DNA from: Candidatus Levyibacteriota bacterium
GTDB taxonomy: Bacteria; Patescibacteriota; Microgenomatia; Levybacterales; UBA12049
Assembly: GCA_016182235.1 (NCBI GenBank)
Contig: JACOXT010000004.1
Location: 28,537-92,536, forward strand
DNA length: 64,000 bases
Direction: 5' to 3'
The position numbers and the translations under genes are program-made. Shown one piece after another: positions 9,580 through 27,172 of the stretch. How positions within the stretch are numbered: the first letter of the stretch is position 1; every line of letters starts with the position of its first letter. The notes under the pieces were generated by a model. That model worked only from the letters and a program-made list of their open reading frames with translations, was not told the origin of the DNA and did no database searches.

Positions 9580-10722
9580 ATGAAAGCTTCCTTTCTTTTA
9601 CAAAACCTTTCTAGGAGAATATCTTTTGTTAATCATGCTGTTTCGGCAAAAAGCCAACTCCCAATTCTTCTTAATTTCCTAATCGAAGCAAAAAAAGGAA
9701 GGTTAATAATAAGCGCAACGGATCTGGAAATTGGTATAGTAGCAGAAGTTCCGGCAAAAATAGAAGAAGAGGGCAGCGTAACAATTCCGGCAAAAGCAAT
9801 TACAGAGCTAATATCGGTAGCCCCAATAGAGAAAATAACGCTCCAAACCAAACCCGAGGGGCTTTTTTTGACAGGAGAAAGAGTAAAGACAACTTTTCAG
9901 ACAATGCCCACAGATGAGTTTCCCAAGCTTTATGGAGACAAAGGTTCAGAGCTAATAAGGCTTAAAAGAAATACGATTGACAAAGAATTTTCAAGGGTTG
10001 TTTTTGCGGCAAGTCAAGACGCAGAAAGACCAGCCCTTTCTGGGGTTTTGATAAAAGAGGGAGAGTCAATGAGTAAAGAGGGGTTTTCTCTTGTTGCGAC
10101 CGATGGGTATAGGCTGTCTTTACAAAGGGAAGCTTTGGGAGGTACTAAAAAGAAAAAAACCACAGATGCCTCAATGATTGTGCCGTCCCGAGTTATTAGG
10201 GAGCTTATTTTAATGAATAAGGAGGCTTCGGAAGGGGGCGACATAGGCGTTTACGTACCGCAAGAAACCAACCAGGTGATATTTTCTCAAAACGACGTAA
10301 CCATTGTGGGAAGGCTTATTGAGGCGGAATTTCCTAATTTTGAAAAAATAATCCCACAAGATTATTCAACAAAAACCATCTTTGAGAAAGAAGCCCTGCA
10401 AAGAGCTGTTAAAGCAAGCTACGTGTTCGCACGGCAAACCGCAAACATAGTAAAGCTTTCGATCATGAAAGATAAGATAGTTGTTTCCGCCAATGCTCCT
10501 TCTTTCGGAAGTAGCGTTATGGAAGTGGACGCAAAAACAACCGGCGAGGAGAATGAGATCGCTTTTAGCGTGCGTTACCTTTTGGATTTTTTTTCAAATA
10601 TCGACGGGGAGGAAGTTTCATTTGAAATGACCGGCCCGTTAAATCCCGGAGTTTTTAAAATAGTAGGGGATGATACATACCTGCATCTAATAATGCCAAT
10701 TCGGATACAACAAGAGGCCTAG
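9580..10722 (+). CDS. dnaN: DNA polymerase III beta sliding clamp
   Basis: 380 aa, directly downstream of dnaA. It has three-domain clamp-like motifs (LVATDGYRLS, MPIRI C-terminus). Confidence 0.9.
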   Translation: MKASFLLQNLSRRISFVNHAVSAKSQLPILLNFLIEAKKGRLIISATDLEIGIVAEVPAKIEEEGSVTIPAKAITELISVAPIEKITLQTKPEGLFLTGERVKTTFQTMPTDEFPKLYGDKGSELIRLKRNTIDKEFSRVVFAASQDAERPALSGVLIKEGESMSKEGFSLVATDGYRLSLQREALGGTKKKKTTDASMIVPSRVIRELILMNKEASEGGDIGVYVPQETNQVIFSQNDVTIVGRLIEAEFPNFEKIIPQDYSTKTIFEKEALQRAVKASYVFARQTANIVKLSIMKDKIVVSANAPSFGSSVMEVDAKTTGEENEIAFSVRYLLDFFSNIDGEEVSFEMTGPLNPGVFKIVGDDTYLHLIMPIRIQQEA

Positions 10723-12257
10723 GGGGTTGGTTGTGATGGGATAAGGGTTGGGGTGGGGGTTGGGGCGCTGCAACTTCTTATAAAAAGACCAGACTTAAAA
10801 TAGTACTGAGGTATCGCGCAATCATATACTCGCTTTTTGCTAGCATCAGCTGGCGAATATTCTATACAAAAGCCATGTTCAATGATACACACATTTGGAT
10901 CATCAAAGCAGCTATTGTAACTTGGGTTTTTGTCGCAAGCTATAATGCCATTCGTACACTTATCAACACAACTTGCCGTTATGGTAATCCCCTCCTCCCT
11001 GCTGTGATACTCGGCAAGATTCCTGGCGCATGCATTGCCATCGGCCACCATTATGTTGTTGCCGTTGGGGTCAGAGCAGTCAACCCCAAACAACTGATGA
11101 CCCTGACCGCCATCTCTTCCGGCAAGAAAGATTATGAGAAAAACAATTATGATGATTAAAATTATAACCCCAATTACAATCCATCCCACTGGATTTGACA
11201 CCAAAGCCCCAACACCTGTGGCTACAGCTCTTCCTGCGGCCATTCCGGCCTGAACAGCAAGTCTTCCCCCGATTCTCGCTATTCCCCTTCCTGCGCCGCC
11301 ACCCCCTCTTCCAAAAGTTCTTCCCAGAAATCTTCCCGCTCTGGTTGATTGGGAGGGGATGCGCGTAAGATTCGCGGGTCTTGATTCTTCCTGCTGGATT
11401 TTCCGTAAGATCCTAGAAATGTTTTGTGAGCTGGGCTTATCTTCCCTTTCCTCAGGCTTTATTTGTTCGCCCGAGTTTTTTTCATGCGAAAGAAGATTAT
11501 GTGAGTTTGTCTTTTCCGGGTGATCTTTTGCAAATTTTGACCACTCATGTTTCTTAATGGCATTACCAACCTCTTCCATAGAATAGTTTCCGCCACCTTT
11601 TTTTAGAAAGTCACTTCTCGCAACAACATGTTCTTCGATAGTTTTGTTTAACCTTATTATCGCGGGGTCGTTCTCGGGATTTTTATAAATTTTTTTCTTT
11701 TCCCTGTCGTATCTTTCCAGCCTTTTTGCGTACTTTGGGTTATCTCGGTATGTCTTTTGGGCATCTTTTGATAGCGAGGGGAGATCCTCGTTTTCTAAAG
11801 AACCATAAAGATAGTCTAGCCCCTCCTGTGAAGAAAAATCTTTTCCGGGATTTTTTTCAAGCCAATCTTTTTTAAGTTTTTCCTCAATTTTTTTATAGTC
11901 TTTATCGTCTTGGATAATCTTTGGGCGCTCAAGAAACATTGCGGCAAGAACAGGAACACCTGCTAGAGATTGCGGAACGTTAGATAGATCAACCGAGCCA
12001 TTTTTTTGCATTTGGATATCCTCATGCTGGCTCCTAAGATAATAATAGGTATCAGCTATTTCTTTCCCGATCCAGATGTCGGGATCTATGTTTTTCTGCC
12101 TTGCCCACCTATAGAATTCTTCTGGAGTTCCTATGCCAAGAGCTTCGGGGTATTTTCTTGAAAAGTTCTGCCATTCAAATGTTTTAGCGTCGGCTTCCTT
12201 GGGGCGTTCTCTTATAAACCTCTCGATTTGGGCAAAGTTTCTGATTTGTGGATCCAT
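10719..12257 (-). CDS. Hypothetical single-pass membrane protein with a Gly/Arg-rich juxtamembrane segment and a Cys-rich C-terminal ectodomain
   Basis: 512 aa. The G/R-rich segment is RTFGRGGGGAGRGIARIGG, followed by a TM helix (WIVIGVIILIIIIVFLIIFLAG), a C-rich tail and a PT linker. It is the last gene of the T4SS-like operon. Confidence 0.5.
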   Translation of the reverse strand: MDPQIRNFAQIERFIRERPKEADAKTFEWQNFSRKYPEALGIGTPEEFYRWARQKNIDPDIWIGKEIADTYYYLRSQHEDIQMQKNGSVDLSNVPQSLAGVPVLAAMFLERPKIIQDDKDYKKIEEKLKKDWLEKNPGKDFSSQEGLDYLYGSLENEDLPSLSKDAQKTYRDNPKYAKRLERYDREKKKIYKNPENDPAIIRLNKTIEEHVVARSDFLKKGGGNYSMEEVGNAIKKHEWSKFAKDHPEKTNSHNLLSHEKNSGEQIKPEEREDKPSSQNISRILRKIQQEESRPANLTRIPSQSTRAGRFLGRTFGRGGGGAGRGIARIGGRLAVQAGMAAGRAVATGVGALVSNPVGWIVIGVIILIIIIVFLIIFLAGRDGGQGHQLFGVDCSDPNGNNIMVADGNACARNLAEYHSREEGITITASCVDKCTNGIIACDKNPSYNSCFDDPNVCIIEHGFCIEYSPADASKKRVYDCAIPQYYFKSGLFIRSCSAPTPTPTLIPSQPTP

Positions 12258-12260
12258 AGG

Positions 12261-14258
12261 CTACTCTTTGGGTTTTTGCTGGTCAAATTGCGTGGCGTTG
12301 GTTTGCAGACTAGGCGGAAAATCATTGATAATTGTTGGTTCGGGCTGGGGCTTACTTGATGGAAAAAGTTTTTCTCTTAGTTCCTCAATGCTCTGCCGAG
12401 AAGATGTGTTGGTAGGGGGAGTTTGGGGTGGGTTATTCTGGTTGGATGGAGTCTCAGGGGGCGGTGGCTGGGGTAATGCCTCTTCTCTTTCTTTTATATC
12501 TTGCGGATTTGTTGTTGCGAGAGTTTTTTCAAAAGGTGCCGCAACTATTTTTATTGCCACATGGGACTGTCCGGCGAAAAATAATCCTTCGCCAACATCA
12601 ACCGCAAGAAGAAGCTCTTTTTCTCCTTTTGAGAGGTAAAATATTTGGGTTACCATGTCTATCTCGGTCGGACTCTGCTTTAGAAGAACTTGAATAGAAG
12701 AATTAGACAATACGGCTTTGCCATAGTCTGTCGAAAGAAAATCCTGAACATCCTGGGTGGCTGTTGTTAACGCCAGATAATACTTGCGTGCCCTTTTGGC
12801 AATCCCATACACGAAAGAGGCAGAATCTGGGTATTTCATCAAATGCCATGCCTCGTCTAAAATAAGAAGTCTTTTCTTAAGGCTGGACCTAACCCTTGTC
12901 CAAACAAAATCCAAGATAATATGCATCGCAATTGACCTAAGATTGTCCTCAAGTCCCCGGATTGAGAAAACAGTAAATGGATTGGTAATATTAAAATTTG
13001 ATTGCTGATTAAATATTCCGGAAAGTGATCCTTTTATGAATTTTTCCAAACGAAGCGCGAGTTCTTGGGCACGGCTTTCTTCCATTCCAAGTAAAACCTT
13101 GTATAAGTCCTCAAGAAGGGGCGGAGTTCTTTTTTGGGTTGACGGATCTATCGTTATACCTTTTTGTCTGTATGTCTCAACCAATGCCCTGTCTAAAATA
13201 GCATCATAGGCGGGGTCAAGGTCTCCCATTACAATTTTAAGAAGCCCATGAAGAGACAGAATCTTAAGCCCCAGCTCGTTTTCTTCTTCTTTGTAAAGCC
13301 CAGCCAGATCAAAGGGGTTAATTTTTATAGGGGATGTTGGGGTAAATACCACATATTCCCCCCCAAGGGTTTTTGTTATAGCCTCATACTCTCCCTCGGG
13401 GTCAATGATTATAATTTCTGTTCCAAACATAAATTGACGCATTGCCTCTAGTTTTATAAGAAAAGACTTTCCGGATCCGGATTTTCCAAAAACAACTTCG
13501 TTGGCGTTTTCAAGCGTAAACCTGTCAAACACAACAAGAGATCCGTTTTGCTGGTTAAGCCCATACATGATTCCCTTGTCTTGGGAGAGCGTTGCTGAAG
13601 TAAAAGGGAAGGTTGACGCAAGAGACGTAGTATCCATATTTCGGGCTATAAACAGATTGTCTACTCCAAGAGGTATGGTTGACTTGAACCCGGCCTCCAT
13701 TTGTAGGGTTGCCCTTTTTGGCAGTATAAGAAGAGAAGCAAGAATGGATTCAAGTCTTTTTGAGGCCTGTTCAATCTCGGGAAGATCTTCGCCATAAAGA
13801 GTTACATACAGACTCATCTGGAAAAATCGCTCAACTCCTTTGGCTAGTTCTTCGGCAAGATTTAACGCGTCATCTAGAGCAGCCTGAACTTTCGCGTCAG
13901 GCACAAGCCCCTGATCAACCTGAGAAGCGATAGTTGCTTCCATTTCCGCGGTTTTACGCCTTATATCAGATAAGACATCCGTAGATGACGTTGGGTATAC
14001 AAACATAGATATGTTAAGAGAATGATTAAAGTCAATAAGGGGAGACAGCCAGTTTGGGGAGACATAGCGAGGATAACCTACGATAAAAAAGGTTTTATAA
14101 AAGTTTTGACCTACTCTTATAAAATTAAAATCCACTTCAACTGAGGATGGCGCTATAACGTCAACAATTGAAACCATTCCTTTCTCAAGGTAAACTAGGG
14201 GTGAATTGGAAGCGCTCTTGTTTTGAGCGGATGTTTTTTTATTATTTTTGAAAAACAT
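12261..14258 (-). CDS. VirB4/TraC/PrgJ-like type IV secretion ATPase
   Basis: Walker A is FGKSGSGKSFLIK and Walker B is RLLILDEAWHLM. Size and N-domain pattern fit VirB4. The C-terminal tail is Pro/Gln-rich. Confidence 0.85.
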   Translation of the reverse strand: MFFKNNKKTSAQNKSASNSPLVYLEKGMVSIVDVIAPSSVEVDFNFIRVGQNFYKTFFIVGYPRYVSPNWLSPLIDFNHSLNISMFVYPTSSTDVLSDIRRKTAEMEATIASQVDQGLVPDAKVQAALDDALNLAEELAKGVERFFQMSLYVTLYGEDLPEIEQASKRLESILASLLILPKRATLQMEAGFKSTIPLGVDNLFIARNMDTTSLASTFPFTSATLSQDKGIMYGLNQQNGSLVVFDRFTLENANEVVFGKSGSGKSFLIKLEAMRQFMFGTEIIIIDPEGEYEAITKTLGGEYVVFTPTSPIKINPFDLAGLYKEEENELGLKILSLHGLLKIVMGDLDPAYDAILDRALVETYRQKGITIDPSTQKRTPPLLEDLYKVLLGMEESRAQELALRLEKFIKGSLSGIFNQQSNFNITNPFTVFSIRGLEDNLRSIAMHIILDFVWTRVRSSLKKRLLILDEAWHLMKYPDSASFVYGIAKRARKYYLALTTATQDVQDFLSTDYGKAVLSNSSIQVLLKQSPTEIDMVTQIFYLSKGEKELLLAVDVGEGLFFAGQSHVAIKIVAAPFEKTLATTNPQDIKEREEALPQPPPPETPSNQNNPPQTPPTNTSSRQSIEELREKLFPSSKPQPEPTIINDFPPSLQTNATQFDQQKPKE

Positions 14259-14260
14259 AT

Positions 14261-14893
14261 TTAGGTAGTTTTTTTAACAATAGGAAATTCGAAATTGCCA
14301 GCGGCTTGATTTATGTGTTCGTATTCCCCGTTATATATTTCGTAAAACAGTCTTACCAAGTCTTCTTTTCCAAGCGTTTTTGCTTGTAAGCCAATTCGCC
14401 CCAATTGTGAATGTATAGACTCTCCTTTAATAGAAAGCCTTGCTTTTGCAGTTTTGAAGAAACTTCCCTGATCTTGTCCTAAGCCTGCCTCCAGGGAAGA
14501 GTGTGAACAAACTATATAAAATTTCTTATCTAAAACAGTATTTATGGTAACAAGTTCCTGTATAAAATCGCGATATTGTTTTATATGGCTTTTTAAAAGA
14601 GGATTCTGGCTTTCCGTAATTTCGTCGTCTAAAAGCTTAAGATATGACGATATATCGACCTTTTTACTTAGGACAACTATTTGGATAGGAAAAGACAGGG
14701 AGTTTAGAAGAGACGAATAAGAGAGCACTTTTGAGTCCTGCTCCTCTTTGGACAAAAGAGCAAAATTAGTCGCTTCAACTTCAATAATCAAACAGGCATT
14801 TCCAGAAGACAGTAAAACGACATTGTCTATAATATCCTGAATCTCAATAAATTTTTGGGTCGTTGTTCGAATTTTTTGGGCAGTTTTTTTCAT
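14261..14893 (-). CDS. Hypothetical protein resembling a VirB4 N-terminal domain, without ATPase motifs
   Basis: 210 aa. FIEIQDIIDNVVLLSSGNACLIIEVEATNFALLSKEEQ parallels the start of the adjacent VirB4-like protein. There is no Walker motif. Confidence 0.4.
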   Translation of the reverse strand: MKKTAQKIRTTTQKFIEIQDIIDNVVLLSSGNACLIIEVEATNFALLSKEEQDSKVLSYSSLLNSLSFPIQIVVLSKKVDISSYLKLLDDEITESQNPLLKSHIKQYRDFIQELVTINTVLDKKFYIVCSHSSLEAGLGQDQGSFFKTAKARLSIKGESIHSQLGRIGLQAKTLGKEDLVRLFYEIYNGEYEHINQAAGNFEFPIVKKTT

Positions 14894-14913: not shown

Positions 14914-16113
14914 TTATTTGTCTCCAAAAAGGGATTTCCTAAGTTCCTCTCTTGTGTCTATGGATACGACTTCAAGAGGCATAATTATGTCACCTTTTAC
15001 CGTAATTTCTACGGCATCGAACTTGTGAATTTTCCTTGGGTCTTCAAATTCAATAGTGTAAATGCCGTTTATCAATGGGGTCGCGGAAATAAACCTGCCT
15101 AGCTCATTGGTCTTGAATGCCCTGACAGGATTTCCTTCCTTGTCCTTGACCTCAACCAAAATATTTGCCAGCATATTATCCCTTGAATCTTTTACAATAC
15201 CCGTTACGAGATTTGGGGCGCTTGGAGTTATTGGCAGACCTATATTTTTACCCATGTTTTGAGGTATGCGTATTACATTTTTAGTTTCTGTTTTTGGCAC
15301 AGCAGTAGAGGGAGTAAAGACATTCTTTGGTTTTGTCTCCATTTTTTGTCTTAGGGATAACAGCTCTTGTGCGAGTTGTTCTTTTTGAGAGTTTACTTCC
15401 TGGAGTTTGCTTTCCAGCTCTGAAACTTTTTTATGAGAGAGGTCTTCAGATTGTTTTTGCTCAGTTTGTTTTTGGACAACGGGAATTTGGATCTTTATGG
15501 GTTCGGGAGGTTTTTCTAAAATTGTAGGTATTTGGGGTTTATTTACTAAAGACTTTGGATTGTTAGCCTTCATGGGGGCGGGGGTAGGCGGATTGATAAA
15601 CCTGGGCATGGGTTGATTTTTGGGCGAAGGGGCAATGGCTTTTTGGCTAGCGGAGGTTAAATTGGAAAGAGACGCCAGAAAATTTGCTTCCTTGTCGTCT
15701 AATTTGTTTCCGGGATGTCTAGGAAGAGACCGAAGATACATTTTTAATCTGTCGTTATCGGAGGGTGGCAATTTTTTTATTTCTTTTTTTTGAGCTGGAT
15801 GAATGCTTGGGAAATAAAGTTGTCCTCCTGCTTTTTGATAAACAAATTGGGTTGGACTAATAAGAGCTTTAATAAAATGAGATATCATAGCATCAAGCGG
15901 ACGGCCCTCAACAGGTAAATATGCAAGGCTTATTCCCACGACCGCGAAAAAAACCGAGATTGGAAATTTAATGATAAAAAAAATTGGCATTTGCAAAATA
16001 AGCCATGCAAAAACAATACCTGTTATCAGATAGCTAAACTGCTTTATTGTCATATTGCCGATTAGCTTGAATTGAAATCCCGTTACGTCTTGAGGAATAG
16101 GATGATCTTCCAT
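14914..16113 (-). CDS. PrgI/VirB3-like membrane protein fused to a coiled coil and a carboxypeptidase-regulatory-like beta domain
   Basis: The N-terminus (IPQDVTGFQFKLIGNMTIKQFSYLITG plus 2 TM) looks like the PrgI family. The C-terminus (TGIVKDSRDNMLANILVEVKDKEGNPV) looks like a CarboxypepD_reg fold. Confidence 0.6.
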   Translation of the reverse strand: MEDHPIPQDVTGFQFKLIGNMTIKQFSYLITGIVFAWLILQMPIFFIIKFPISVFFAVVGISLAYLPVEGRPLDAMISHFIKALISPTQFVYQKAGGQLYFPSIHPAQKKEIKKLPPSDNDRLKMYLRSLPRHPGNKLDDKEANFLASLSNLTSASQKAIAPSPKNQPMPRFINPPTPAPMKANNPKSLVNKPQIPTILEKPPEPIKIQIPVVQKQTEQKQSEDLSHKKVSELESKLQEVNSQKEQLAQELLSLRQKMETKPKNVFTPSTAVPKTETKNVIRIPQNMGKNIGLPITPSAPNLVTGIVKDSRDNMLANILVEVKDKEGNPVRAFKTNELGRFISATPLINGIYTIEFEDPRKIHKFDAVEITVKGDIIMPLEVVSIDTREELRKSLFGDK

Positions 16114-16214: not shown

Positions 16215-16877
16215 ATGATCTATTTACTTTTACTATTTTTGGAAATCGCTTTGTTGTTTTTTCTTTCGCGCGCAGTGAGCCAGGCTCTTTCCCGATTCTT
16301 ATCCATACAAATTTTATCTTTTATTTTTTTGCCCGGGGTTATAATCCATGAGCTGTCCCATATGTTAGTCGCGTCAGTTTTGTTTGTCAGGGTAGGGGAT
16401 ATGGAGTTTTCTCCAAAAATTACAGAAGGAAAGCTCAAGTTGGGGAGTGTGGCAATCGCAAAAACCGACCCAGTAAGAAGGGCAATAATAGGCTTTGCGC
16501 CTGTTTTCACAGGCGTCTTAATAATTCTTGGAATTATATACTTTTTTTCCAATAGCTTCTTGCTCTTTCAGGAAAACCAAATATACATGACGGTATTTAT
16601 GGTTTTGGCAATCATTTATATTTTGTTTGCAATTTCAAATACTATGTTTTCAAGCAGGAGTGATATGGAAGGGACATTAGAGCTTATTATAGTTTTTTTG
16701 GTAATTTTTGCAGTTCTTTATTTTCTTGGCTTTCGTGTTCCTGTTTCTTTTTTAGAATATTTAAATACACCAGGTATCGTAAAGCTTTTCAAAGAAGCAT
16801 GTCTATTTCTTTCCGCGCCGATCGCAATAGACTTTGTTATATTAAGAGGAATTAAGCTTTTTAGAAAAGAATTATGA
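16215..16877 (+). CDS. Polytopic membrane protein with an HExxH motif (putative metalloprotease)
   Basis: 220 aa with about 5 TM helices. GVIIHELSHMLVA sits at a membrane boundary. The gene is embedded, on the opposite strand, in the pilin cluster. Confidence 0.5.
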   Translation: MIYLLLLFLEIALLFFLSRAVSQALSRFLSIQILSFIFLPGVIIHELSHMLVASVLFVRVGDMEFSPKITEGKLKLGSVAIAKTDPVRRAIIGFAPVFTGVLIILGIIYFFSNSFLLFQENQIYMTVFMVLAIIYILFAISNTMFSSRSDMEGTLELIIVFLVIFAVLYFLGFRVPVSFLEYLNTPGIVKLFKEACLFLSAPIAIDFVILRGIKLFRKEL

Positions 16878-16889
16878 ATCCAGCGCCTC

Positions 16890-17216
16890 TCAGCAGCCGA
16901 ATCCAAATGTTTTAATGCAGGGGACTTGAGTGACTTCGAATATAAGGTTTCGTATGAAAAAAGAAAATAGAACAAGCAAAAGCCCCACAATTGCAAATAT
17001 AAGCGTGTTTCTTGCCGATTCAAGAACTTTTGGATCTCCCGCAGAATGCATATACTTATAACCGCTAAAAATTATAAATACCAATGAAGTAATTCCCACA
17101 AACATTAAAAGAGCATTTATGATATTTAAGAAAACAGCAGGAATACAAGAAAGGGTGGCAACGCCATTCTCAACACAGTTAATTTTTAAAAATTCATCCC
17201 ATTGAAACTGAGGCAT
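16890..17216 (-). CDS. T4SS pilin-like protein (VirB2/TrbC-like), paralog 1
   Basis: Two-TM hairpin with the shared motif FSGYKYMHSAGDPKVLESARNTLIFAIVGLLLV. Confidence 0.7.
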   Translation of the reverse strand: MPQFQWDEFLKINCVENGVATLSCIPAVFLNIINALLMFVGITSLVFIIFSGYKYMHSAGDPKVLESARNTLIFAIVGLLLVLFSFFIRNLIFEVTQVPCIKTFGFGC

Positions 17217-17285
17217 AATTTAAGACTAGCAGAGAGAAAGCAAAAAAACAATAGTCTACAAAAAGCGTTTGATAAGCAAGAGAAG

Positions 17286-17750
17286 CTAGGAAGTAGGAGC
17301 AACTATTTTTGGAATCTTTAGATCAGTAAGGCTCAAATCGAAGGCCGCAAGAACAAGAGAAACAATAAAAATTGCCAGGAAAACAACTATAAGTCCGACT
17401 ACAGCGGCGATAATATGGTTTCTTGCCGCCTCAACTTGATCTTTTTCTCCTCTTGAAGTTATCCACTTTACCCCTCCATATAAGAGATACAAAAGTGCAA
17501 TAACAACAGCAATTACTATAATGGCAATTACTATATTGCCTAGTGTTTTAGAAGTTTGGTTTCCACCAATTGCACATAAGACATCAAGAAAGGGATTAAC
17601 TTCTTTACCGGGTCCGACTCCAACACACGGATCCACTTCTGTTTGCGCAAATGCGGGAAAAGCTAAAAGAGGATAAAGGAATGAAGCTTGAATAAAGAGA
17701 AATAATTTCTTCATTAAATTTATAGTAGAGGGTGTTTTCGCATTTGTCAA
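17286..17750 (-). CDS. T4SS pilin-like protein, paralog 2 (likely start at MKKLFLF, nt 17714)
   Basis: It has a signal peptide plus the motif YGGVKWITSRGEKDQVEAARNHIIAAVVGLIVV. Confidence 0.7.
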   Translation of the reverse strand: MTNAKTPSTINLMKKLFLFIQASFLYPLLAFPAFAQTEVDPCVGVGPGKEVNPFLDVLCAIGGNQTSKTLGNIVIAIIVIAVVIALLYLLYGGVKWITSRGEKDQVEAARNHIIAAVVGLIVVFLAIFIVSLVLAAFDLSLTDLKIPKIVAPTS

Positions 17751-17764
17751 GGGGTATCTTAGCT

Positions 17765-18097
17765 TTAATTTGACCCCAAAAGCTTTATTCCAAAAAATCC
17801 TCCTAAAAGACTTAATATAAATATTGTGAAGAAGATAACAAGTAACCCAATAATCGCGTATCTTAATCTTTCTCTGCCGTGAGCGAATCTTTCTTTATCT
17901 CCTCCTGATGTCATCATGTTGAATCCTGCAAGGAAGATGCTATAAACAGAAAAAATAAGCGCAGCAAGAATCAAAAATTCGATGACAACAGCAATGATAT
18001 TTTGGCCTCTTGGGAAAAGCCCGCCAGTCGGCACACCAGTTGGCAAGCCGATATCTATATTCGGAAATCCCGGTATTGAAAACGCAATCTTTTCCAT
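17765..18097 (-). CDS. T4SS pilin-like protein, paralog 3
   Basis: Carries the motif LAGFNMMTSGGDKERFAHGRERLRYAIIGLLVI. Confidence 0.65.
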   Translation of the reverse strand: MEKIAFSIPGFPNIDIGLPTGVPTGGLFPRGQNIIAVVIEFLILAALIFSVYSIFLAGFNMMTSGGDKERFAHGRERLRYAIIGLLVIFFTIFILSLLGGFFGIKLLGSN

Positions 18098-18098
18098 A

Positions 18099-18195
18099 TG
18101 ATTAATGATTGATGATTTCTGATTAATGAAAAAAATAATTATATTTTCTCAATTCTATATTCTTAAATCTTTAATCATTAATCTTAAATCAATTC
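18099..18195. repeat. Inverted pair of heptamer arrays forming a hairpin between two pilin genes
   Basis: The left arm is TGATTAA/TGATTGA/TGATTTC/TGATTAA (18099-18126). The right arm is TCTTAAA/TCTTTAA/TCATTAA/TCTTAAA/TCAATTC (18161-18195). The arms are mutually complementary. Confidence 0.8.
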
Positions 18196-18199
18196 AGTC

Positions 18200-19450
18200 C
18201 TACGGATTGAATCCGGGTATATGCAAAATATCCACTCCAATTACCTGAAGTATTACAAATGAGAATATGATAAACAAAAGCCCGATGATTGCGGATAATA
18301 GCTGGCCTCGAGCCGCCTGAAGAGCTTCCGGATTTCCCTGAGATGCTATGAATCTATATCCTGAAAGAATAATCAAGATTAATGCAATTCCTCCGGCCAA
18401 CCCCAAAACTATGCTATATATACGAGTTACAAAGTCCTTAGGTTGTGTACTAATACCGCCAATCGCTGTGTTAATTGTTCTGCATATTTTGTTATCATCA
18501 TTCTCGTCGGTCGGATTTCCATTCTCGTCAACCCATTCAGTGCAAACAGCAGCATTAGTCGGCGCAATATAAATATCGAAATTTACACACTTATATCGGG
18601 TGACATTATCTTCTACCGCAAATCTGCAGACTTTTCCCTCGGGACAGTTGTTTTTGCCCGGATCGCACTCAGATGTTCCCGGAGGGGCAGGTCGACAACA
18701 AAACTGTCCATTACAATCATCGCTTTTTCCTAAAAGTAGTGCGCCAGCAAAGATTGGACATTCGGAGGCTTTATTAACACAGATATCAGGAGAACTGCAA
18801 GTCACAAGAGTTTTTTGGCAGCATATTTCAGATTTACCACAATAATTTTCTCTTGGTCCCAGCGAATTTCCTCCATCGTTGCGACATTCTCCTTCTGATG
18901 CACAATAATTAGGAGATAGGCAAGCCGTTCCCGGATCTGGCGGAGCTGGTTGGCAGCATATTTCAGGACTCTCACATTTCTTATCTACTAGTGGACTTCC
19001 GTTATTTGTTTTACATTCATCACTTGATGTGCAATAATTGGGGACTGAACACAATTGTTGAATTGGAATTGGGGTGGGGGTGGGGGTAGGAGTAGGGGCA
19101 TCAGCACATTGTAAGGCGTTGCAAAAATTACTGCAGCATTGATTGTTTTGTATACATCCCTTGCCGTTTGATTGGCAGAATGGAGTTGGAGTAGGCGTAG
19201 GTTTGCCGGTTGGGGTGGGAGTGAGTGTTGGAGTAGGAGTTCGTGTGGGCGTTGGGGTCCCGAATTGGTGGGGACAGCTATTGTTCGGATCATCGCAATA
19301 CTGTCCGAAGTCATCTCTTAGACACTGGTCGTTAGGGGAGCATGTGTCAGCGCCGCAGTTGCCATTACAGTGACTTGCTTGCGCGGAATTTACAGGAACT
19401 AAAAAAAGAAGTAAAAACAAAAACAAACCAAATAATACCTTAATCTTCAT
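18200..19450 (-). CDS. Secreted Cys-rich modular protein with a C-terminal T4SS pilin-like domain (pilin fusion)
   Basis: It has a signal peptide, PT linkers, and three CxxP(N/D)xC...EC...(I/F)CC(Q/R)P modules. The C-terminal motif is LSGYRFIASQGNPEALQAARGQLLSAIIGLLFI. Confidence 0.7.
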   Translation of the reverse strand: MKIKVLFGLFLFLLLFLVPVNSAQASHCNGNCGADTCSPNDQCLRDDFGQYCDDPNNSCPHQFGTPTPTRTPTPTLTPTPTGKPTPTPTPFCQSNGKGCIQNNQCCSNFCNALQCADAPTPTPTPTPIPIQQLCSVPNYCTSSDECKTNNGSPLVDKKCESPEICCQPAPPDPGTACLSPNYCASEGECRNDGGNSLGPRENYCGKSEICCQKTLVTCSSPDICVNKASECPIFAGALLLGKSDDCNGQFCCRPAPPGTSECDPGKNNCPEGKVCRFAVEDNVTRYKCVNFDIYIAPTNAAVCTEWVDENGNPTDENDDNKICRTINTAIGGISTQPKDFVTRIYSIVLGLAGGIALILIILSGYRFIASQGNPEALQAARGQLLSAIIGLLFIIFSFVILQVIGVDILHIPGFNP

Positions 19451-19451
19451 G

Positions 19452-19898
19452 TTATTCAGTTCTATCTCCTACCATACGAATTATTCCGTCTGATTTATCC
19501 ACAAAAACCTCTATGGTGTAATCCGGAATTTCCGGTGATCGAAGATAATATGGATTATCTAGCGTCATACCAAATATCCACATTTCTTTTTTTGCACGTT
19601 CTTTATACAAGGGGGGTATGCGGTAAGAGGTTTCTTCTTTTTTTACATATTCTACTTTTCCCGGATGTTTTTGAAGGACGATATCTATTGCTTCCTCGCA
19701 GGATATCTCTCCATCAACTGATTGGTAATTAGAACAAAGGTTAGAGTAAACATTATTTTGTGAATTGGTTGGCTGAATAATGGCTGGTTGATTTGGGATA
19801 TTGGTTTCTTGAGGTTTTGTATTATTTGTCCATAGGAGAAAAACTACTATTACAATAACAGTCAAAAGAATAAATACAAGAATATTTGTTCTTCCCAC
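19452..19898 (-). CDS. Membrane-anchored hypothetical protein (possibly PepSY-like)
   Basis: An N-terminal TM helix. EISCEEAIDIVLQKHPGKVEYVKKEE vaguely resembles PepSY. Confidence 0.35.
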   Translation of the reverse strand: MGRTNILVFILLTVIVIVVFLLWTNNTKPQETNIPNQPAIIQPTNSQNNVYSNLCSNYQSVDGEISCEEAIDIVLQKHPGKVEYVKKEETSYRIPPLYKERAKKEMWIFGMTLDNPYYLRSPEIPDYTIEVFVDKSDGIIRMVGDRTE

Positions 19899-19936
19899 AT
19901 ATTTATAGTAGTAGACCCAAGAAAGAATTGCAATAT

Positions 19937-20785
19937 CTAAAGAGTGTGTGGCAAGTGGTGCTTGAAGGAGTTTTTGTTGGCATAATCAATAATTTTTTGC
20001 GCGTTTGGAAAACCAATTTTGGAAATTTCTGAAATAGTCATTTTTTTATCAAAATAAAGAAACAAAACATTGTCAGCCTCTTTGTATGAAAATCCAAATT
20101 CACCTTCATCGCTTTGTCCCTCCCAAAGCCCTGCGGTTGGAGGCTTGTCAATTATATTTTGTGGGATTTTAAGATATCTGGCAAGTTGATAAACTTGCGT
20201 CTTATATAGGTGCTGTATGGGTTCAAAATCAGACGCCTCATCTCCATGACGAGTGAAATATCCTAAAAGATGCTCAGATTTGTTTTCTGTTCCCGCGACA
20301 AGGCAATTGTGTTTCTTGGCAAGATCAAAAAGAATAATCATTCTTACACGAGCCATGATATTGCCGAGACGGATACGGTTCACCTCGGAGGAGTCATTTC
20401 GCAACACCTCGAAGGTGGCCGACTCGCCCGGCGAAGCCTTGGCGAAGCGGGGATGGACTCCTTCGAGGTGGGATTGGAACGCCCTCACCATAGGTTCAAT
20501 AGACAGTTCATAAATATTTTCTTTTGGAATCTTTGCTTCTTTTAAAATCGGCTCTATCTCATTAAAATAAGATTTAAAATAATAAAGATGTGCGACGAAA
20601 ATGTTTTGAGGGGCAAGAACTTCTCTCAAAAGATAAAAACTGGTTGTTGAGTCAATTCCGCCTGACATTCCTATAACAACCTTTTCAAAACCACTATCTT
20701 GCAATGTCTTTCTAATAAAGGAGGTAATTTTGTTTGTTTCGGCAAAAGGATTTATGTTAAGTAGATTGTTGTTCAATTGTTTCAT
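19937..20785 (-). CDS. nadE: NH3-dependent NAD+ synthetase
   Basis: PP-loop SGGIDS (VIGMSGGIDSTT) and the C-terminal family pattern. It carries an in-frame GC-rich palindromic insert at 20405-20470. Confidence 0.85.
   Translation of the reverse strand: MKQLNNNLLNINPFAETNKITSFIRKTLQDSGFEKVVIGMSGGIDSTTSFYLLREVLAPQNIFVAHLYYFKSYFNEIEPILKEAKIPKENIYELSIEPMVRAFQSHLEGVHPRFAKASPGESATFEVLRNDSSEVNRIRLGNIMARVRMIILFDLAKKHNCLVAGTENKSEHLLGYFTRHGDEASDFEPIQHLYKTQVYQLARYLKIPQNIIDKPPTAGLWEGQSDEGEFGFSYKEADNVLFLYFDKKMTISEISKIGFPNAQKIIDYANKNSFKHHLPHTL
20405..20470. repeat. GC-rich palindromic element, long form, inside nadE
   Basis: 11-bp inverted repeats: CACCTCGAAGG at 20405-20415 and CCTTCGAGGTG at 20460-20470. 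The core CCCGGCGAAGCCTTGGCGAAGCGGGG is at 20427-20452. GC content is far above the surroundings. Confidence 0.8.
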
Positions 20786-21648: not shown

Positions 21649-22011
21649 CTAAAAGGTTTTCCAGTTGTTTCGAAGATTAGTAAGTTTTCCTCCTAATAAC
21701 AGGTATCTATTGATAAGGTCGTTGCAAAAATTCTTTTCCCAAAAAACTAAATCTCTTGCCAAGCTGATATGGACTTCCATTTCATTACAAGATCCAATTG
21801 CTGAATCTAAATGCAGCTTGAATTGTTTATCAAATCTTCTTTTTGCCCAACCTTCTGCAATATTTGCAGGAACAGATTTAGAGGCTTTTCTTAACTGCAA
21901 GCCAAGGTCATTCCTTTCAAATAGGGGAAGTTTATTAACATTTCTATTAACTGTAAGAGCTAATTCGTAGGCTTCTTTATACACTTCCAAATCTCTAAAG
22001 CTCTTGATCAT
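21649..22011 (-). CDS. Four-helix-bundle protein (23S rRNA intervening-sequence protein family)
   Basis: 120 aa. FRDLEVYKEAYELALTV and ANIAEGWAKR motifs are typical of this family. Confidence 0.8.
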   Translation of the reverse strand: MIKSFRDLEVYKEAYELALTVNRNVNKLPLFERNDLGLQLRKASKSVPANIAEGWAKRRFDKQFKLHLDSAIGSCNEMEVHISLARDLVFWEKNFCNDLINRYLLLGGKLTNLRNNWKTF

Positions 22012-22202: not shown

Positions 22203-25200
22203 ATGAAACAGGAATTATTGAACCAAACCTTGACAAGCCCACCTCAAACACCCTATTCTAGGGATGGAGCTATTTTTATGGAGGTAGTGAAAGATATGCC
22301 TAATTCCGCAAACCAACCCAAAAACCCAGAGAGAACAGAAAATAGGCCTTTAGATAAAGTAAGGGTAGAAGTAAACAACACATCCAAAAAAGAAGAAACT
22401 TCTTCAAAATCTCCCCAGTCAGTTTCCGAAGAAAAGAAGGGGTCTCCTGTCGAAGCAAAAATTACAAAAGTCGATTCTAAAAAAATAGATAATGAGGAGT
22501 TAAGAAAAGAATGGCATAAAGTATTTACACCAGAAGAGTTAAAAAATCCCGATACAAGATCAACTATAGAATTAGCTATCAAACTGGGCTATAGTCCTGA
22601 GAGCATTACATCAAAAGGCCCATTGGAATTTAAAGCAAAAGATGTTATCGCAAATGCTTTACTTGATGATCAACAGCGCATTGAGAAGGCTGAAGAACTG
22701 CTTGGGCGATCTTTGTCAATAAAACAACGAGAATTACTTCTGAAAGCACACTATGCATCAAAAGGTAAGACTGGTAAAGATGGTCGTGGGGCAGGAGTGT
22801 TCAATTTAGAAAGAAAACAACTTGCAGAAGAAGCAAGGATACTTAGTAACGAAGAAGGTTTTACTGACAAAGAAAGACGTATACTTATTGAAGCTGGTCT
22901 AGCAGCAACTCTTATTCCTAATATCTATACGGATCCCACTTTGCAACTTATTGCCGAACAATACATTAATGAGGTAAACCGTATAAATGCAACTAATCCA
23001 AGTGAACATGTAGACCCCAATTTTCTCATTCGACTAATGACTGATGTTGAAAGACGAGCTCGTGACGGCCTAGTAGACAGAACGCAAGCACTAAATCTAC
23101 TAAATGAATTTCAAACCATATTTGCTGATGAGAATCCTGCTCAAGGAGAGAGCCCTTTGACTAGAGAGATTAATCTAATCAAAGGTCTGCAAGGACAAGA
23201 CAGAAGGGATGCATTACTTAATTTATTGAGGGCTTATCCTCCCCTGAGTGCTCCTTTACCGCACGAAATTATAGAATTAACAATGGAGGATGATGAATCC
23301 TTTGAATCCTTAGTCAATAGAATTGTTTCTCTTCCACTTGACAAAGAGACCTCTGACTATACTCTCGGACTCTATGGCTCAGGAAATCTTGAAACGATTA
23401 GCGATGCACTTACTCAAAAATTAGATACTGAGACAGATCCCGATGAGAGAGATAGACTTAGTAGGTTAAAAGATAGATTTAATCTGGCTACAGAATCATT
23501 TACTTTAACCCACAATATGAATACTCGAATAGTCACTGGAGAAATACAGGAATTTATTCGTACCGCGGAAAGAATTCTACCCCCTCATCTTAATTATCTT
23601 CAAAAATTAAACGGTGTAAGCGAAGCGATGAGAATTTATGAAGAAACCTATGATAGATATCTTGCAAAGTATGGATGGATGTATCCTTTTGCATCAGTAC
23701 TATTGCATTACGAAGTTTTCAGCAAGCTAAGAGAACTAAATGATGCGGGGGGGCTTGGCGTAGCAAAGGCAATGGATGGGGAACTAAGATTAATAAAACT
23801 GGAAGAGTGGGAGTTAAGAAGAGCATATAATATAGCAAGAAAATTTTATAACAATACATTTAGATCATCAGAAAAAGTTGCTACCGGGACAGTCCCTCGC
23901 AATATGGAAGGTGAGGAGAGACAGGAAATATTGGCAGAAATCCAAGACGCGATAGATTCAGGAAACACAAATAAAGAGGCTTTACTTAGAAATGAACTGG
24001 CTGACGCTGAAGAAAGGGGACAATCTAGGTATTCTTCTTTTGCGTTAGAATCAGCTGCCAGAATTATGAATCCAATACAGCTTCTTATATATCGTTTTCA
24101 AATAGCGGGTGAGGAACATGGATTGGTTTTCCTTAAAAAAGCAAAAGAGTACTATCTAGAATTTTTGAGACATAACTATAAACTTGGAATAAATAAAATA
24201 ACCACTCTTGGTGGGGTAAACGTTGAAGAGATGGAGGTTGGAGGAGTATTTGGGGTTTCAGGATTCTATAGTTCATGGAGAACAGAAAATATCGCCATAA
24301 GCCAGATGAAAGTTAATATTGGTGGACAGGAATTAACAATAAGAAGATGGTTAGCGGAAACTACATATGAAATTGAACAAGCTAATACGGCATTCAAAGA
24401 TGCAGGGCAGAATAGACAGTTAAAGCATAACGCGCAAGTACAATTAGCTGATGCCCTAAAGCCCCTTATTGATAATGTTCATGTTGGATTAGGCATGTTG
24501 TTAAGACAGCCAGCTTTTGGTGGTGAAATAGGTTATGAAGCAAGAAAGTTACTATGGGAGAAAATTGTGAAAGGAAATGATCCAGCAAACAATAATCCAA
24601 GGGAAGGAAATCTAGATGTAGCAATAAACTATTTAACAAAGTTAAAAATTCAGGATGGAAGTATAAGATCACTAGAAGAAATTAAATCAAGTGGTGGAAA
24701 TTATTGGGACGTTCCTTCAGGAGACCCATTGACGACTCCATGGGAAATACTGAGAAGAAAAATTCTTTTGCAACATCAGAAAAATATTAGGAAATCGTTT
24801 GATACTAATGTCAATTTAATTCCTGATCAAGATTTTGATGCAAATGAAACTCGTTTAATACTTACAATTAAAGAAGAAGGCAGAAAGCTCGCTCAACATC
24901 TGGCCGACATATCATTTCCATATGTACCCTTCATGAATGACGCGCCTTTCGAAATTTTTGATTATACGCTGGCAGGAGACGAGGTTTATAGAAGAAGGGC
25001 AGGAGGAGATATACCTAGCTATTTTGAAGGGTCTAACGCGTTTGTGGCTATTGTTGATAATCCTGGCGGAATTGGTGATGAAAAAGCAATGGAGAATTTC
25101 CTTAAGCTTGAAAGAGGAGTTGAATCTCCTCAAGGACGACCAGATGCCCAAAGAAGAACATACCCACTTTTTAAAGCTTGGCTAGAATGGGTAATGACCA

Positions 25201-25502
25201 AGCCTGGACAAAGACAAGAGCAATTTAAAGCGATTAAGCAAACATTATTACATCCTACCTCTGAAGCACAGGAACATTCAGGTATGGAGGCAATGTCAAT
25301 AAATGAAGAACAAGCAAGAAAGTTTATAGACCATGCTGTATTAGCAAACTTTTTGAATGAGGAGCTGGCAGATGAGCTAAAAAAGGAAAAAAATCTTAAA
25401 TTTGTAGGTATGCTTTGGGCACTCTTTAGAGATATGTTTATTACAGTTATTCCTGCAGCTGTCGTATATAGCTTTGGTAAAGAGGTATTGAAAACAAAGT
25501 GA
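22203..25502 (+). CDS. Large hypothetical protein (1099 aa) with a C-terminal TM anchor
   Basis: A long uninterrupted ORF, mostly helical and charged, with no motif I recognise. The C-terminal hydrophobic helix is FVGMLWALFRDMFITVIPAAVVYSFG. Confidence 0.6.
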   Translation: MKQELLNQTLTSPPQTPYSRDGAIFMEVVKDMPNSANQPKNPERTENRPLDKVRVEVNNTSKKEETSSKSPQSVSEEKKGSPVEAKITKVDSKKIDNEELRKEWHKVFTPEELKNPDTRSTIELAIKLGYSPESITSKGPLEFKAKDVIANALLDDQQRIEKAEELLGRSLSIKQRELLLKAHYASKGKTGKDGRGAGVFNLERKQLAEEARILSNEEGFTDKERRILIEAGLAATLIPNIYTDPTLQLIAEQYINEVNRINATNPSEHVDPNFLIRLMTDVERRARDGLVDRTQALNLLNEFQTIFADENPAQGESPLTREINLIKGLQGQDRRDALLNLLRAYPPLSAPLPHEIIELTMEDDESFESLVNRIVSLPLDKETSDYTLGLYGSGNLETISDALTQKLDTETDPDERDRLSRLKDRFNLATESFTLTHNMNTRIVTGEIQEFIRTAERILPPHLNYLQKLNGVSEAMRIYEETYDRYLAKYGWMYPFASVLLHYEVFSKLRELNDAGGLGVAKAMDGELRLIKLEEWELRRAYNIARKFYNNTFRSSEKVATGTVPRNMEGEERQEILAEIQDAIDSGNTNKEALLRNELADAEERGQSRYSSFALESAARIMNPIQLLIYRFQIAGEEHGLVFLKKAKEYYLEFLRHNYKLGINKITTLGGVNVEEMEVGGVFGVSGFYSSWRTENIAISQMKVNIGGQELTIRRWLAETTYEIEQANTAFKDAGQNRQLKHNAQVQLADALKPLIDNVHVGLGMLLRQPAFGGEIGYEARKLLWEKIVKGNDPANNNPREGNLDVAINYLTKLKIQDGSIRSLEEIKSSGGNYWDVPSGDPLTTPWEILRRKILLQHQKNIRKSFDTNVNLIPDQDFDANETRLILTIKEEGRKLAQHLADISFPYVPFMNDAPFEIFDYTLAGDEVYRRRAGGDIPSYFEGSNAFVAIVDNPGGIGDEKAMENFLKLERGVESPQGRPDAQRRTYPLFKAWLEWVMTKPGQRQEQFKAIKQTLLHPTSEAQEHSGMEAMSINEEQARKFIDHAVLANFLNEELADELKKEKNLKFVGMLWALFRDMFITVIPAAVVYSFGKEVLKTK

Positions 25503-25549: not shown

Positions 25550-27172
25550 TTAACGAAACATGCGTTTGAGTACTCCTTGTATTCCTTCAGCCTTAGTAGG
25601 AGAAGGCAATTTAGATTTATAGGCAACTATTGTCCCTACAGTTTCCCTACCTATTCCAATCGCACCTCCGACTGGTGCAAAAGCAGATCCGGTCTCAACC
25701 TTTGGAGCCTTGAGCATAGCTTTGAGCATGTTGACGACATTCGGCGTCATAAGAATAATGCCAAGCCCAATTAAAGCTCCGATATGATCTTCGTTGGCGC
25801 GGGCTCCAATAAGAGGAGGAACGAACAAGGTATTTTCCGGAAATCCGCCAAAAGCTGCCATAAATACTTTTCCAAGTAAAAACATGGCAATTACAGCAGG
25901 AAATGCGGCGAGATTTGCGATCAAATCTCGGAACCATCCTCCAACATTTATCGGACTTCCAGGAATTAATCCGCCAATAATCCAAAATGGTGCTAAGATA
26001 ACATCAATTAATATATGAACATAAGCAAAAAGAAGAGTAAACCAAAGTCTAAAAAGAGCAATTAAAAGTGCAATTGAGATTATTATAAAAGCAAGAAATC
26101 CAACAAACGTACCTAGTACTACGTGAAGCATTTTGAATAGTATATCTGCAACTGCATTTGTTGCTACATTTTCTATATTGGTAATCCAATTAAGAGGGTT
26201 CCACCATGTGCCTCCTTCGCCTGCACCAGGAAGAGCCACACCAACAACTACTTTAGACACAAATGTAGAAAAACTATTTAAAAAAGGGTCATAAAAATTT
26301 GCAAGAACTTCACTAATTGCTAGAGAAGGTTCTTCTATAAGCCTCCACATTCCACCATAAGCATTTCCTCCTCCTGCGCCAACTTCTGCTGCTGCTGAGA
26401 AAGGATTAGTTTTTTGTGAAAGTTGCGTAGGAAGACTTTTGTCTAATCCAGCGGAATCAACAATAAGATTACCAATTACATGAGTTGATACATACATCAT
26501 GTCTATCAAAAACCCCGCTATAGCATAGGAAAAAGTTACAAGAAGTATGCCGATTATAATTTTGGGTATCTGGTTTTGGATAGACATTACAGTTCTAGGA
26601 TCAATTTTTACTCTAAGCATAATTGCGAGTCCTATAACAACAAATACCAAAACAAAGAAAAGATAAACGATATTTCTAAATCCTTCCCACACCCTTAGAA
26701 GTGGTTTAAGTCCTTCAAACCCAGTTCCTGTTTGAGCATAAGCTATTTTTGAAATACCGAAATTCTGCGCCAGATATTGAAAATAGTCGCCGGTACGAAG
26801 AGGGGGAGTATAAAGAGAGGCTATCAAATTGTTCATTCCTCCAATTGCTCCTCCAATCTCTCCTTTTTCCAAATCCCCTTTTGGCAAAAAACCAATTTTT
26901 CCTGTTTTCGGATCAGCTCCAAGGCAGGTGCCTTTGGGATTTGTAGGATCAATGCCTGAAATCTGGCAGGAAAGCGCGCTTGCTACCTCAATCATCACAG
27001 TCTGAGTCCAGTTATGTAAGTTATTTGGAACTTCGGGGTTGGTATTGGGAGGTGGAGGATTTATTCGGGGAAGCTCTTGAGCATTGACTGAAGTAGGAAG
27101 TAGGAAGTATGAAGTAAGAAGTAAGAGAGCAGAGAAAATGAAAACAAAAAGGAGTCGGGCAGGAATTTTCAT
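25550..27172 (-). CDS. VirB6/TrbL-like polytopic membrane protein
   Basis: 540 aa with a signal peptide and then at least 6 TM helices. The size and topology match T4SS channel subunits found next to VirB4 in Gram-positive/CPR loci. The assignment rests on context and topology only. Confidence 0.5.
   Translation of the reverse strand: MKIPARLLFVFIFSALLLLTSYFLLPTSVNAQELPRINPPPPNTNPEVPNNLHNWTQTVMIEVASALSCQISGIDPTNPKGTCLGADPKTGKIGFLPKGDLEKGEIGGAIGGMNNLIASLYTPPLRTGDYFQYLAQNFGISKIAYAQTGTGFEGLKPLLRVWEGFRNIVYLFFVLVFVVIGLAIMLRVKIDPRTVMSIQNQIPKIIIGILLVTFSYAIAGFLIDMMYVSTHVIGNLIVDSAGLDKSLPTQLSQKTNPFSAAAEVGAGGGNAYGGMWRLIEEPSLAISEVLANFYDPFLNSFSTFVSKVVVGVALPGAGEGGTWWNPLNWITNIENVATNAVADILFKMLHVVLGTFVGFLAFIIISIALLIALFRLWFTLLFAYVHILIDVILAPFWIIGGLIPGSPINVGGWFRDLIANLAAFPAVIAMFLLGKVFMAAFGGFPENTLFVPPLIGARANEDHIGALIGLGIILMTPNVVNMLKAMLKAPKVETGSAFAPVGGAIGIGRETVGTIVAYKSKLPSPTKAEGIQGVLKRMFR
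27090..27124. repeat. Heptamer array GAAGTAG x5 inside the VirB6-like signal-peptide region
   Basis: The units are GAAGTAG GAAGTAG GAAGTAT GAAGTAA GAAGTAA. On the minus strand they are translated as LLLTSYFLLPTS. Confidence 0.85.

Follow-up and report, generated by a model that had tools for sequence, protein, structure and literature searches.

The 64,000-nucleotide stretch of DNA analysed here, which we call the window, belongs to a metagenome-assembled genome of Candidatus Levybacteria (Patescibacteria) and carries at 16890-19450, on its minus strand, four neighbouring open reading frames (ORFs) whose products of 416, 110, 154 and 108 amino acids (aa) are termed here p416, p110, p154 and p108. 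All four products match a T4SS pilin family, and the first of them, p416 (100% identical to NCBI HYT07_03565), is a long "modular" pilin in which the pilin domain lies at the C-terminus behind a large Cys-rich ectodomain. An earlier note on this DNA had presented the fusion as an oddity; it is instead conserved, as the opening gene of a four-gene array that recurs in at least 51 Levybacteria and Daviesbacteria loci, and its pilin anchor and its ectodomain evolve at different rates. We see about an even chance that the long pilin is a host-binding minor, probably tip, subunit encoded in the VirB2-like operon of the origin-proximal type IV secretion system (T4SS) of Levybacteria.

The four tandem pilin paralogues recognised in that note were all recovered as matches to PF18895 (T4SS_pilin), with p416, p110 and p154 passing the gathering score of 26.6 bits and p108 alone falling slightly under it. 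Assignment of p108 is backed by its match to NF045849 ('Mbov_0395 family pilin-like conjugal transfer protein' in NCBIfam) at an E-value (E) of 1.6e-6 and by positional orthology; all four proteins match this second profile, in each case under its cut-off. Weak matches of p416 and p154 were also obtained to positions 51-123 of the 322 in profile NF045848, which are its hairpin-like part (E 0.0065-0.019, under the cut-off). The C-terminus of p416 scores over the PF18895 threshold (33.1 versus 26.6 bits), which settles the earlier doubt as to whether this segment would score to pilin models at all. Two hydrophobic segments joined by a short polar loop are present in all four pilins, as seen by hydropathy and in an alignment of the four domains (alignment A2) that reproduced the shared two-helix motif described before and in which G37, S43, G45, R54, A60, G63 and L64 are invariant. 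The paralogues of the window are mutually 24-37% identical, and p154 matches residues 329-404 of p416 by BLASTP (E 5e-8). Members of the PF18895 family are small, with a precursor of about 100-150 aa, which is true of the three short paralogues and not of p416. The short proteins differ in their tails: p110 has neither a signal peptide nor Cys, p154 has a signal peptide and a Cys pair ahead of its first transmembrane segment (TM1) and is probably 142 aa long with a start at Met13 (nt 17714), and p108 has two Cys in its N-tail and two in its C-tail.

The organisation of p416 (Table 1) agrees with the earlier description of a signal peptide, PT linkers and three Cys repeats followed by a pilin domain. 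The Sec-type signal peptide is predicted to be cleaved after residue 26 on the basis of an AQA motif, and inspection of the N-terminus, MKIKVLFGLFLFLLLFLVPVNSAQA followed across the predicted cleavage site by SHC, did not reveal a class III prepilin motif (G, then after the cleavage site F/M-x-x-x-E). The variable ectodomain consists of five 6-Cys mini-modules linked by PT or PAPP linkers. One mini-module is spaced C-x6-C-x5-CC-x3-C-x4-C, and a regular-expression census placed three repeats of the form C-x5-C-x5/6-C-x12-14-C-x4/5-CC at residues 134-166, 177-211 and 218-252 (nt 18695-19051). The large disulfide-rich ectodomain ascribed to this protein is borne out by its 36 Cys, all of which fall within residues 28-323, and the mature ectodomain measures about 310 aa as opposed to the roughly 330 aa given before. 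The juxtamembrane neck is semi-conserved to conserved, and holds the Cys pair C303/C323 together with a TAIGxIST motif; among homologues, C323 does not vary and C303 is kept in at least 90%, and their coverage of p416 climbs from residue ~255 and is full from ~320. The IPGF tail at the extreme C-terminus is invariant or nearly so in 45 long pilins, precedes a Gly/Ser linker in those homologues that are extended C-terminally, and may serve as a processing or docking motif. That p416 is a product of misassembly or of a frameshift can be rejected, since more than 100 independent proteins have the same architecture.

Structure prediction had been proposed for the ectodomain modules; the neck and the hairpin could be modelled, and the modules, mostly residues 21-252, could not. 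The AlphaFold2 (AF2) model, built on a 45-sequence alignment, has a predicted local distance difference test (pLDDT) score below 50 over most of that range and block-mean values of 82-92 across residues 271-400, with a dip at 291-300. Strands within residues 273-334 are predicted to form a small beta domain that is followed by helices at 337-369 and 374-409, the block-mean pLDDT of these hairpin helices being 86-89.

Conservation of the array was assessed in a scan of one genome per species that found 227 relatives, from which 80 loci (Levybacteria, Daviesbacteria and other Microgenomates) were examined, with arrays called by a local hidden Markov model (HMM) search of ORFs. The ordered four-gene array is present in at least 51 Levybacteria and Daviesbacteria loci, the window counted, with order and sizes as in the window and with the long modular pilin always as the first gene. 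Median lengths at the four positions are 414, 110, 142 and 106 aa, respectively (range 196-647 aa for position 1), and genes at positions 3 and 4 best match p154 and p108 of the window. Identity between genomes is 58, 39, 51 and 50% for positions 1 to 4 as compared with 32-43% between positions within a genome, so that between-genome identity exceeds within-genome identity for positions 1, 3 and 4, with the comparison for position 1 being favoured by how the loci were selected. This fixed order, the fixed sizes and the positional similarity mark the four genes as old, non-redundant paralogues and not as recent duplicates. Placement of nadE and nadD differs among the loci, as in L001 and L003 these genes separate the long pilin from the last two short ones, while in the window and in L004 the four pilin genes are contiguous with nadE/nadD upstream; the array has therefore been broken up or reunited in the course of evolution. 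Genes of the PF05635 family ('23S rRNA intervening sequence protein') also occur beside or between pilin genes in several Levybacteria loci.

Anchor and ectodomain of the long pilins evolve in a decoupled manner, with the ectodomain being the faster of the two. The long-pilin set used for this comparison comprises the best 120 homologues among the matches listed for p416, which are 231-721 aa long and all carry PF18895. In 116 of them the pilin domain is C-terminal, and in the other 4 another 55-159 aa come after it; the ectodomain that precedes it reaches up to 630 aa. What these listed homologues share with p416 is confined to residues ~303-416, with any part of the Cys-repeat region found in just 10-16 of 119. 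Every pair of pilin cores aligns (median identity 70%), whereas ectodomains align at E < 1e-3 in 741 of 7140 pairs, or about 10%; when only the 1263 pairs with cores at least 75% identical are considered, ectodomains align in 192. For example, most neighbour proteins in the closest genome (L004) are 53-81% identical to those of the window, but its long pilin aligns to p416 from residue 209 only and has one Cys module as opposed to three. Other long homologues bear FN3 or Ig-like (ASH) ectodomains instead.

The Cys module is mobile. When 1.84 billion representative proteins were searched exhaustively by phmmer with the p416 ectodomain, 17 matches were obtained, mostly to the PT linker, and of these P0002 and the subtilase P0124 alone gave useful information. 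A search for the module in other proteins, as the earlier note had suggested, proved productive: it lies N-terminal to the hairpin in P0001, P0002, P0051 and P0064, C-terminal to the hairpin in P0037, P0042, P0096 and L038, and twice in the tail of P0124, which is a secreted Peptidase_S8 subtilase. The ectodomains are also extracytoplasmic in character, with paired Cys. Among long pilins with a signal-peptide-like N-terminus the number of Cys is even in 93 of 94 mature ectodomains (range 4-38, with the 36 Cys of p416 near the top), which is the pattern that fully disulfide-bonded extracytoplasmic domains would show.

In VirB2 and TraA pilins the loop between the two helices is cytoplasmic and both termini are extracytoplasmic; in assembled pili the termini lie on the outer surface. 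By comparison with these proteins, we infer the membrane topology of the long pilin, its incorporation into a filament, its location at the tip and its binding to a host as follows. A Sec signal peptide would export the N-terminus of p416 and the two C-terminal helices would enter the membrane as a hairpin whose two ends face outwards and whose short, weakly basic loop lies inside; with a hairpin of this topology, the ~310-aa disulfide-bonded ectodomain would be held outside on the beta neck. Four results fit such a topology, namely the signal peptide, the Cys pairs in the N- and C-tails of short paralogues, the even Cys counts and the two-sided placement of Cys modules, the last of which fits with both termini being outside. 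A VirB4-driven machine would then take up the long pilin as a minor, probably tip-located, subunit, with the conserved hairpin and neck docking with the machine and with the short pilins, and the three short pilins would build the remainder of the structure. T4SS pili are extended at their base, so that the first subunit to be incorporated would come to lie at the tip, although this is speculation. Binding to the surface of a host bacterium would fall to the fast-evolving ectodomain, as a functional analogue of VirB5/PrgB-type adhesins and of modular type IV pilins. A broader version of this proposal, which we advance only tentatively, is that the patescibacterial pilus or stalk ends in a "modular VirB2 pilin" whose hypervariable, disulfide-knotted ectodomain is the determinant of host specificity and the adhesin missed by surveys, and that hosts are changed by swapping or expansion of modules at either end of the hairpin.

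A number of observations weigh against a filament with p416 at its tip. No experiment or structure shows polymerisation of any PF18895 protein, and the searchable text of a review speaks only of a 'potential' pilus (PMC12857230). A 300-aa domain would be hard to fit on every subunit of a VirB2-type lattice, so p416 has to be assumed to be a minor subunit only. The net charge of the inter-helix loops is +1 to +2, and that of p416 only +1, which makes it a weak argument for topology. A Foldseek search of the full p416 AF2 model against the PDB returned generic helical hairpins only, with T-pilus VirB2 (8exh_A) ranked 43rd at an E of 6.9 that is not distinguishable from noise, and a profile of the four pilin domains searched against PDB sequences gave chance matches only. 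Domain and fold searches with the p416 ectodomain likewise returned no recognisable binding domain and no fold match. The profile of classical TrbC/VirB2 pilins, PF04956, is matched by p154 at E 0.0018 (18.9 bits versus a cut-off of 27.9) and by 11 of 45 long homologues (best E 5.8e-5), none of which reaches the gathering score of that profile; PF18895 is matched by 45 of 45. With no fold or PDB-profile match, homology to classical VirB2/TrbC is suggested by these weak HMM links only.

The main rival to a tip-located pilin, which we hold to be possible and somewhat doubtful, is that the two-helix domain is a membrane anchor or a static part of the T4SS channel, with the four proteins forming a fixed hetero-oligomer whose ectodomain passes through the wall in the absence of any filament. 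A fixed four-member set with positional orthology does look more like a stoichiometric complex than like major and minor pilins, no specific structural match to solved pilus subunits was obtained, and PT linkers together with ectodomains of up to 630 aa could span the cell wall by themselves. In addition, monoderm T4SSs are described in the searchable parts of PMC12102498 and PMC12857230 as generally being without pili. However, the domain belongs by HMM to a VirB2/TrbC-like family whose known role is polymerisation, and among the four pilins it is the long one whose core is best conserved (58% versus 39-51%), which suggests a constraint from interaction with the machinery that goes beyond anchoring.

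A lesser rival takes p416 to be a pro-protein in which the pilin domain directs the protein to the T4SS or membrane, after which the ectodomain is cleaved and released as a secreted effector or toxin-like peptide array, possibly through cleavage by the HExxH membrane protein encoded next to the array. VirB2, TrbC and TraA pilins are indeed processed proteolytically at their N-terminal ends, and TrbC at its C-terminal end as well. The 6-Cys mini-modules also have Cys spaced like those of knottins and beta-defensins, as judged from sequence, the HExxH protein is conserved, and the same Cys module is found in a secreted subtilase. We nevertheless consider release to be unlikely, as the beta neck is conserved, has a conserved disulfide of its own and directly adjoins TM1, which speaks for a stalk that stays attached, as no conserved cleavage motif could be seen where the variable part gives way to the conserved one, and as many homologues have Ig/FN3-type ectodomains that are typical of adhesins and not of toxins; a fold search did not produce a defensin or knottin match. 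Least probable of all, and in our view very improbable, is that the four genes are recent tandem duplicates that serve antigenic or host-range variation, as proposed for VirB2 paralogues of Bartonella and Anaplasma and, in the searchable text of PMC12102498, for arrays of the Candidate Phyla Radiation (CPR), with the long form being a lineage-specific accident: the identity of only 24-37% among the window paralogues is in its favour, but order and sizes are kept across the conserved loci, positions 1, 3 and 4 are closer between genomes than to neighbours in their own genome, and the long architecture is present in all 120 listed homologues.

Part of what we describe has precedent. The searchable text of PMC12102498 reports tandem arrays of 2-11 VirB2-like genes in Patescibacteria, which are especially abundant in Microgenomates and accompany an origin-proximal monoderm-type T4SS, that of PMC10633639 likewise contains tandem pilin arrays from Patescibacteria, and according to the available portions of PMC10633639 and PMC12857230 the pilin array is essential in Southlakia epibionticum. 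The tandem-paralogue half of our finding is therefore known biology. These CPR arrays (Wang et al. 2023, PMC10633639; Quinonero-Coronel et al. 2025, PMC12102498) have in common with ours the Pfam family, a type of locus with VirB4, TrsD and PrgI/VirB3 close to dnaA, and the divergent tandem genes. They differ in that the pilins, as published in the text that can be searched, are small and without an adhesin, while here the first of a fixed four is a 200-700-aa modular pilin; surveys of patescibacterial T4SS loci similarly found pilin arrays and no adhesin (PMC12102498, searchable part). There is no mention of large ectodomain fusions in the searchable text of these two papers, nor of a fixed ordered four-gene set with an always-modular first pilin in the literature that could be searched. 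Relative to that literature, the modular long pilin, its hypervariable paired-Cys ectodomain and the fixed positional organisation appear to be undescribed.

Comparison with other systems is also informative. Like the proteins described here, the VirB2/TrbC/TraA pilins of diderm T4SSs (PF04956; T-pilus 8EXH and F-pilus) have a signal peptide, a two-helix hairpin with a short loop and a gene location by VirB3/VirB4; however, they have a mature length of ~70-120 aa without an ectodomain and occur in diderm hosts, whereas ours is a monoderm. The likeness to VirB5 tip proteins and PrgB adhesins lies in the proposed role only, which is that of a binding surface at the distal end of a T4SS; neither has sequence or domain similarity to p416, both use a soluble VirB5 fold or an LPXTG anchor in place of a pilin hairpin, and no recognisable VirB5 or PrgB is present in the locus. 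In modular type IV pilins such as PilB and PilC of Streptococcus sanguinis, a functional module is grafted on a conserved pilin moiety and the filament displays an adhesin. Those pilins form an unrelated filament and have a class III signal peptide, a single N-terminal helix and a C-terminal module, in contrast to the Sec-type signal peptide and C-terminal two-helix domain of p416. Finally, pilin-like proteins from integrative conjugative elements of Mycoplasma (NF045849, Mbov_0395; NF045848, MMCAP2_0566) are from monoderm conjugation-type loci and have a pilin-like hairpin, with scores here under the cut-offs; NF045848 represents a larger protein and was compared by profile match only.

If the favoured reading is true, the long pilins would be the first class of VirB2-type pilins with grafted binding domains, and if the hairpin domain polymerises, VirB2-type pilins would tolerate large N- or C-terminal grafts in nature. 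A T4SS with a pilin array is essential in the one genetically tractable patescibacterium (PMC10633639), and no adhesin has been identified (PMC12102498), as far as the searchable text of these papers goes. A conserved pilin with a faster-evolving outer domain is a plausible candidate for a host-recognition element of Microgenomates, and the combination of a conserved anchor with a variable ectodomain may provide a sequence marker for tracking host specificity in metagenomes.

The genes around the array point to a T4SS locus. Genes for PrgI, a TrsD-like protein and VirB4 are located downstream of the pilins on the same strand within 5 kb, with dnaN and dnaA directly beyond, and the arrangement of the three T4SS genes is kept in 37-42 related loci. 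Synteny also extends to the VirB6-like candidate and the HExxH protein together with PrgI, the TrsD-like protein, VirB4 and dnaN (L001, L003, L004 and across the 80 loci). The 540-aa VirB6-like candidate, a homologue of which precedes the long pilin by ~6.5 kb in 53 related loci, is on topology and synteny likely to be a VirB6-type channel subunit. The HExxH protein has no match in Pfam or NCBIfam; homologues occupy the same place, on the opposite strand from the pilin array and between it and prgI, in 21 related loci, 20 of which retain the HExxH motif, and the protein may be a candidate pilin-processing metalloprotease. A 148-aa gene located upstream of p416 at 19452-19898 was left out of the system because none of the related loci contains a homologue. 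A promoter and terminator scan of 16700-20100 gave sites no more numerous than in shuffled sequence.

Table 1. Coordinates of the pilin array, the parts of p416 and neighbouring genes (positions in the window unless stated).
Feature	Position	Strand	Basis
p416, long modular pilin	18200..19450	-	PF18895 at residues 337-404, 33.1 bits, E 6.2e-8
p416 Sec-type signal peptide, residues 1-26 (MKIKVLFGLFLFLLLFLVPVNSAQA then SH)	19373..19450	-	hydrophobic segment 1-26; AF2 helix 2-17
p416 variable ectodomain, residues 27-257	18680..19372	-	sequence; regular-expression census; low pLDDT; few relatives
p416 juxtamembrane neck, small beta domain, residues 258-336	18443..18679	-	AF2 and homologue conservation
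p416 VirB2-like pilin domain, residues 337-404, hairpin loop SQGNPEALQAAR	18239..18442	-	PF18895; AF2 helices
p416 I-P-G-F C-terminal end, residues 411-416	18200-18217	-	45 long pilins
p110, short pilin 2	17765..18097	-	PF18895 27.8 bits, E 2.7e-6; array position 2
p154, short pilin 3	17286..17750	-	PF18895 43.0 bits, E 4.8e-11; position 3 orthologues
p108, short pilin 4	16890..17216	-	PF18895 24.6 bits, E 2.7e-5; position 4 orthologues
220-aa polytopic membrane protein, HELSH (HExxH)	16215..16877	+	between pilin array and prgI, opposite strand
PrgI/VirB3-like protein with C-terminal CarboxypepD_reg-like domain	14914..16113	-	PF12666 27.2 bits; in 42 loci
TrsD-like protein (resembles VirB4 N-terminal domain)	14261..14893	-	NF041427 TrsD E 4.4e-6; NF045975 E 8.8e-12
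VirB4-family ATPase	12261..14258	-	NF045971 389.5 bits versus cut-off 325; PF19044
540-aa VirB6-like candidate, signal peptide and at least 6 transmembrane segments	25550..27172	-	hydropathy and synteny; no Pfam match
PF05635 gene, window	21649-22011	-	
PF05635 gene, L001	7224-7595		
PF05635 genes, L003	11315-11689, 13787-14158		

Other proteins in the window also have unusual extracellular or accessory parts. In the PrgI/VirB3-like protein, a Pro/Lys/Gln-rich linker is followed by a CarboxypepD_reg-like beta-sandwich domain (E 2e-4), so a second T4SS membrane subunit bears an additional domain behind its transmembrane part. The protein encoded at 22203-25502 (plus strand) is 1099 aa long, contains no Cys, has a single hydrophobic segment, which is C-terminal, and is without a Pfam match; its position by the pilin locus is conserved, and it is 33% identical to its L004 orthologue as compared with 53-81% for most neighbours. 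Located after virB4, at 10719-12257 (minus strand), is the gene for a 512-aa protein with a Gly/Ala/Arg-rich segment, one transmembrane segment, a 10-Cys extracellular tail and a PT-rich end, of which only the C-terminal half is conserved in L004. The earlier note had linked its Cys tail to the p416 modules, a relationship that did not hold up, as no homology was detected (best E 4.1). Disulfide-rich surface or secreted proteins are numerous in this organism, and two further large secreted Cys-rich proteins are encoded at 49602-52079 and 52125-54824, both on the minus strand. The latter, of 899 aa, combines repeated GGC-x3-C-x3-C modules with a YYTP-type Tyr/Pro/Thr repeat of several hundred residues, and it is this repeat that gives rise to the GC-skew spike at 52-54 kb.

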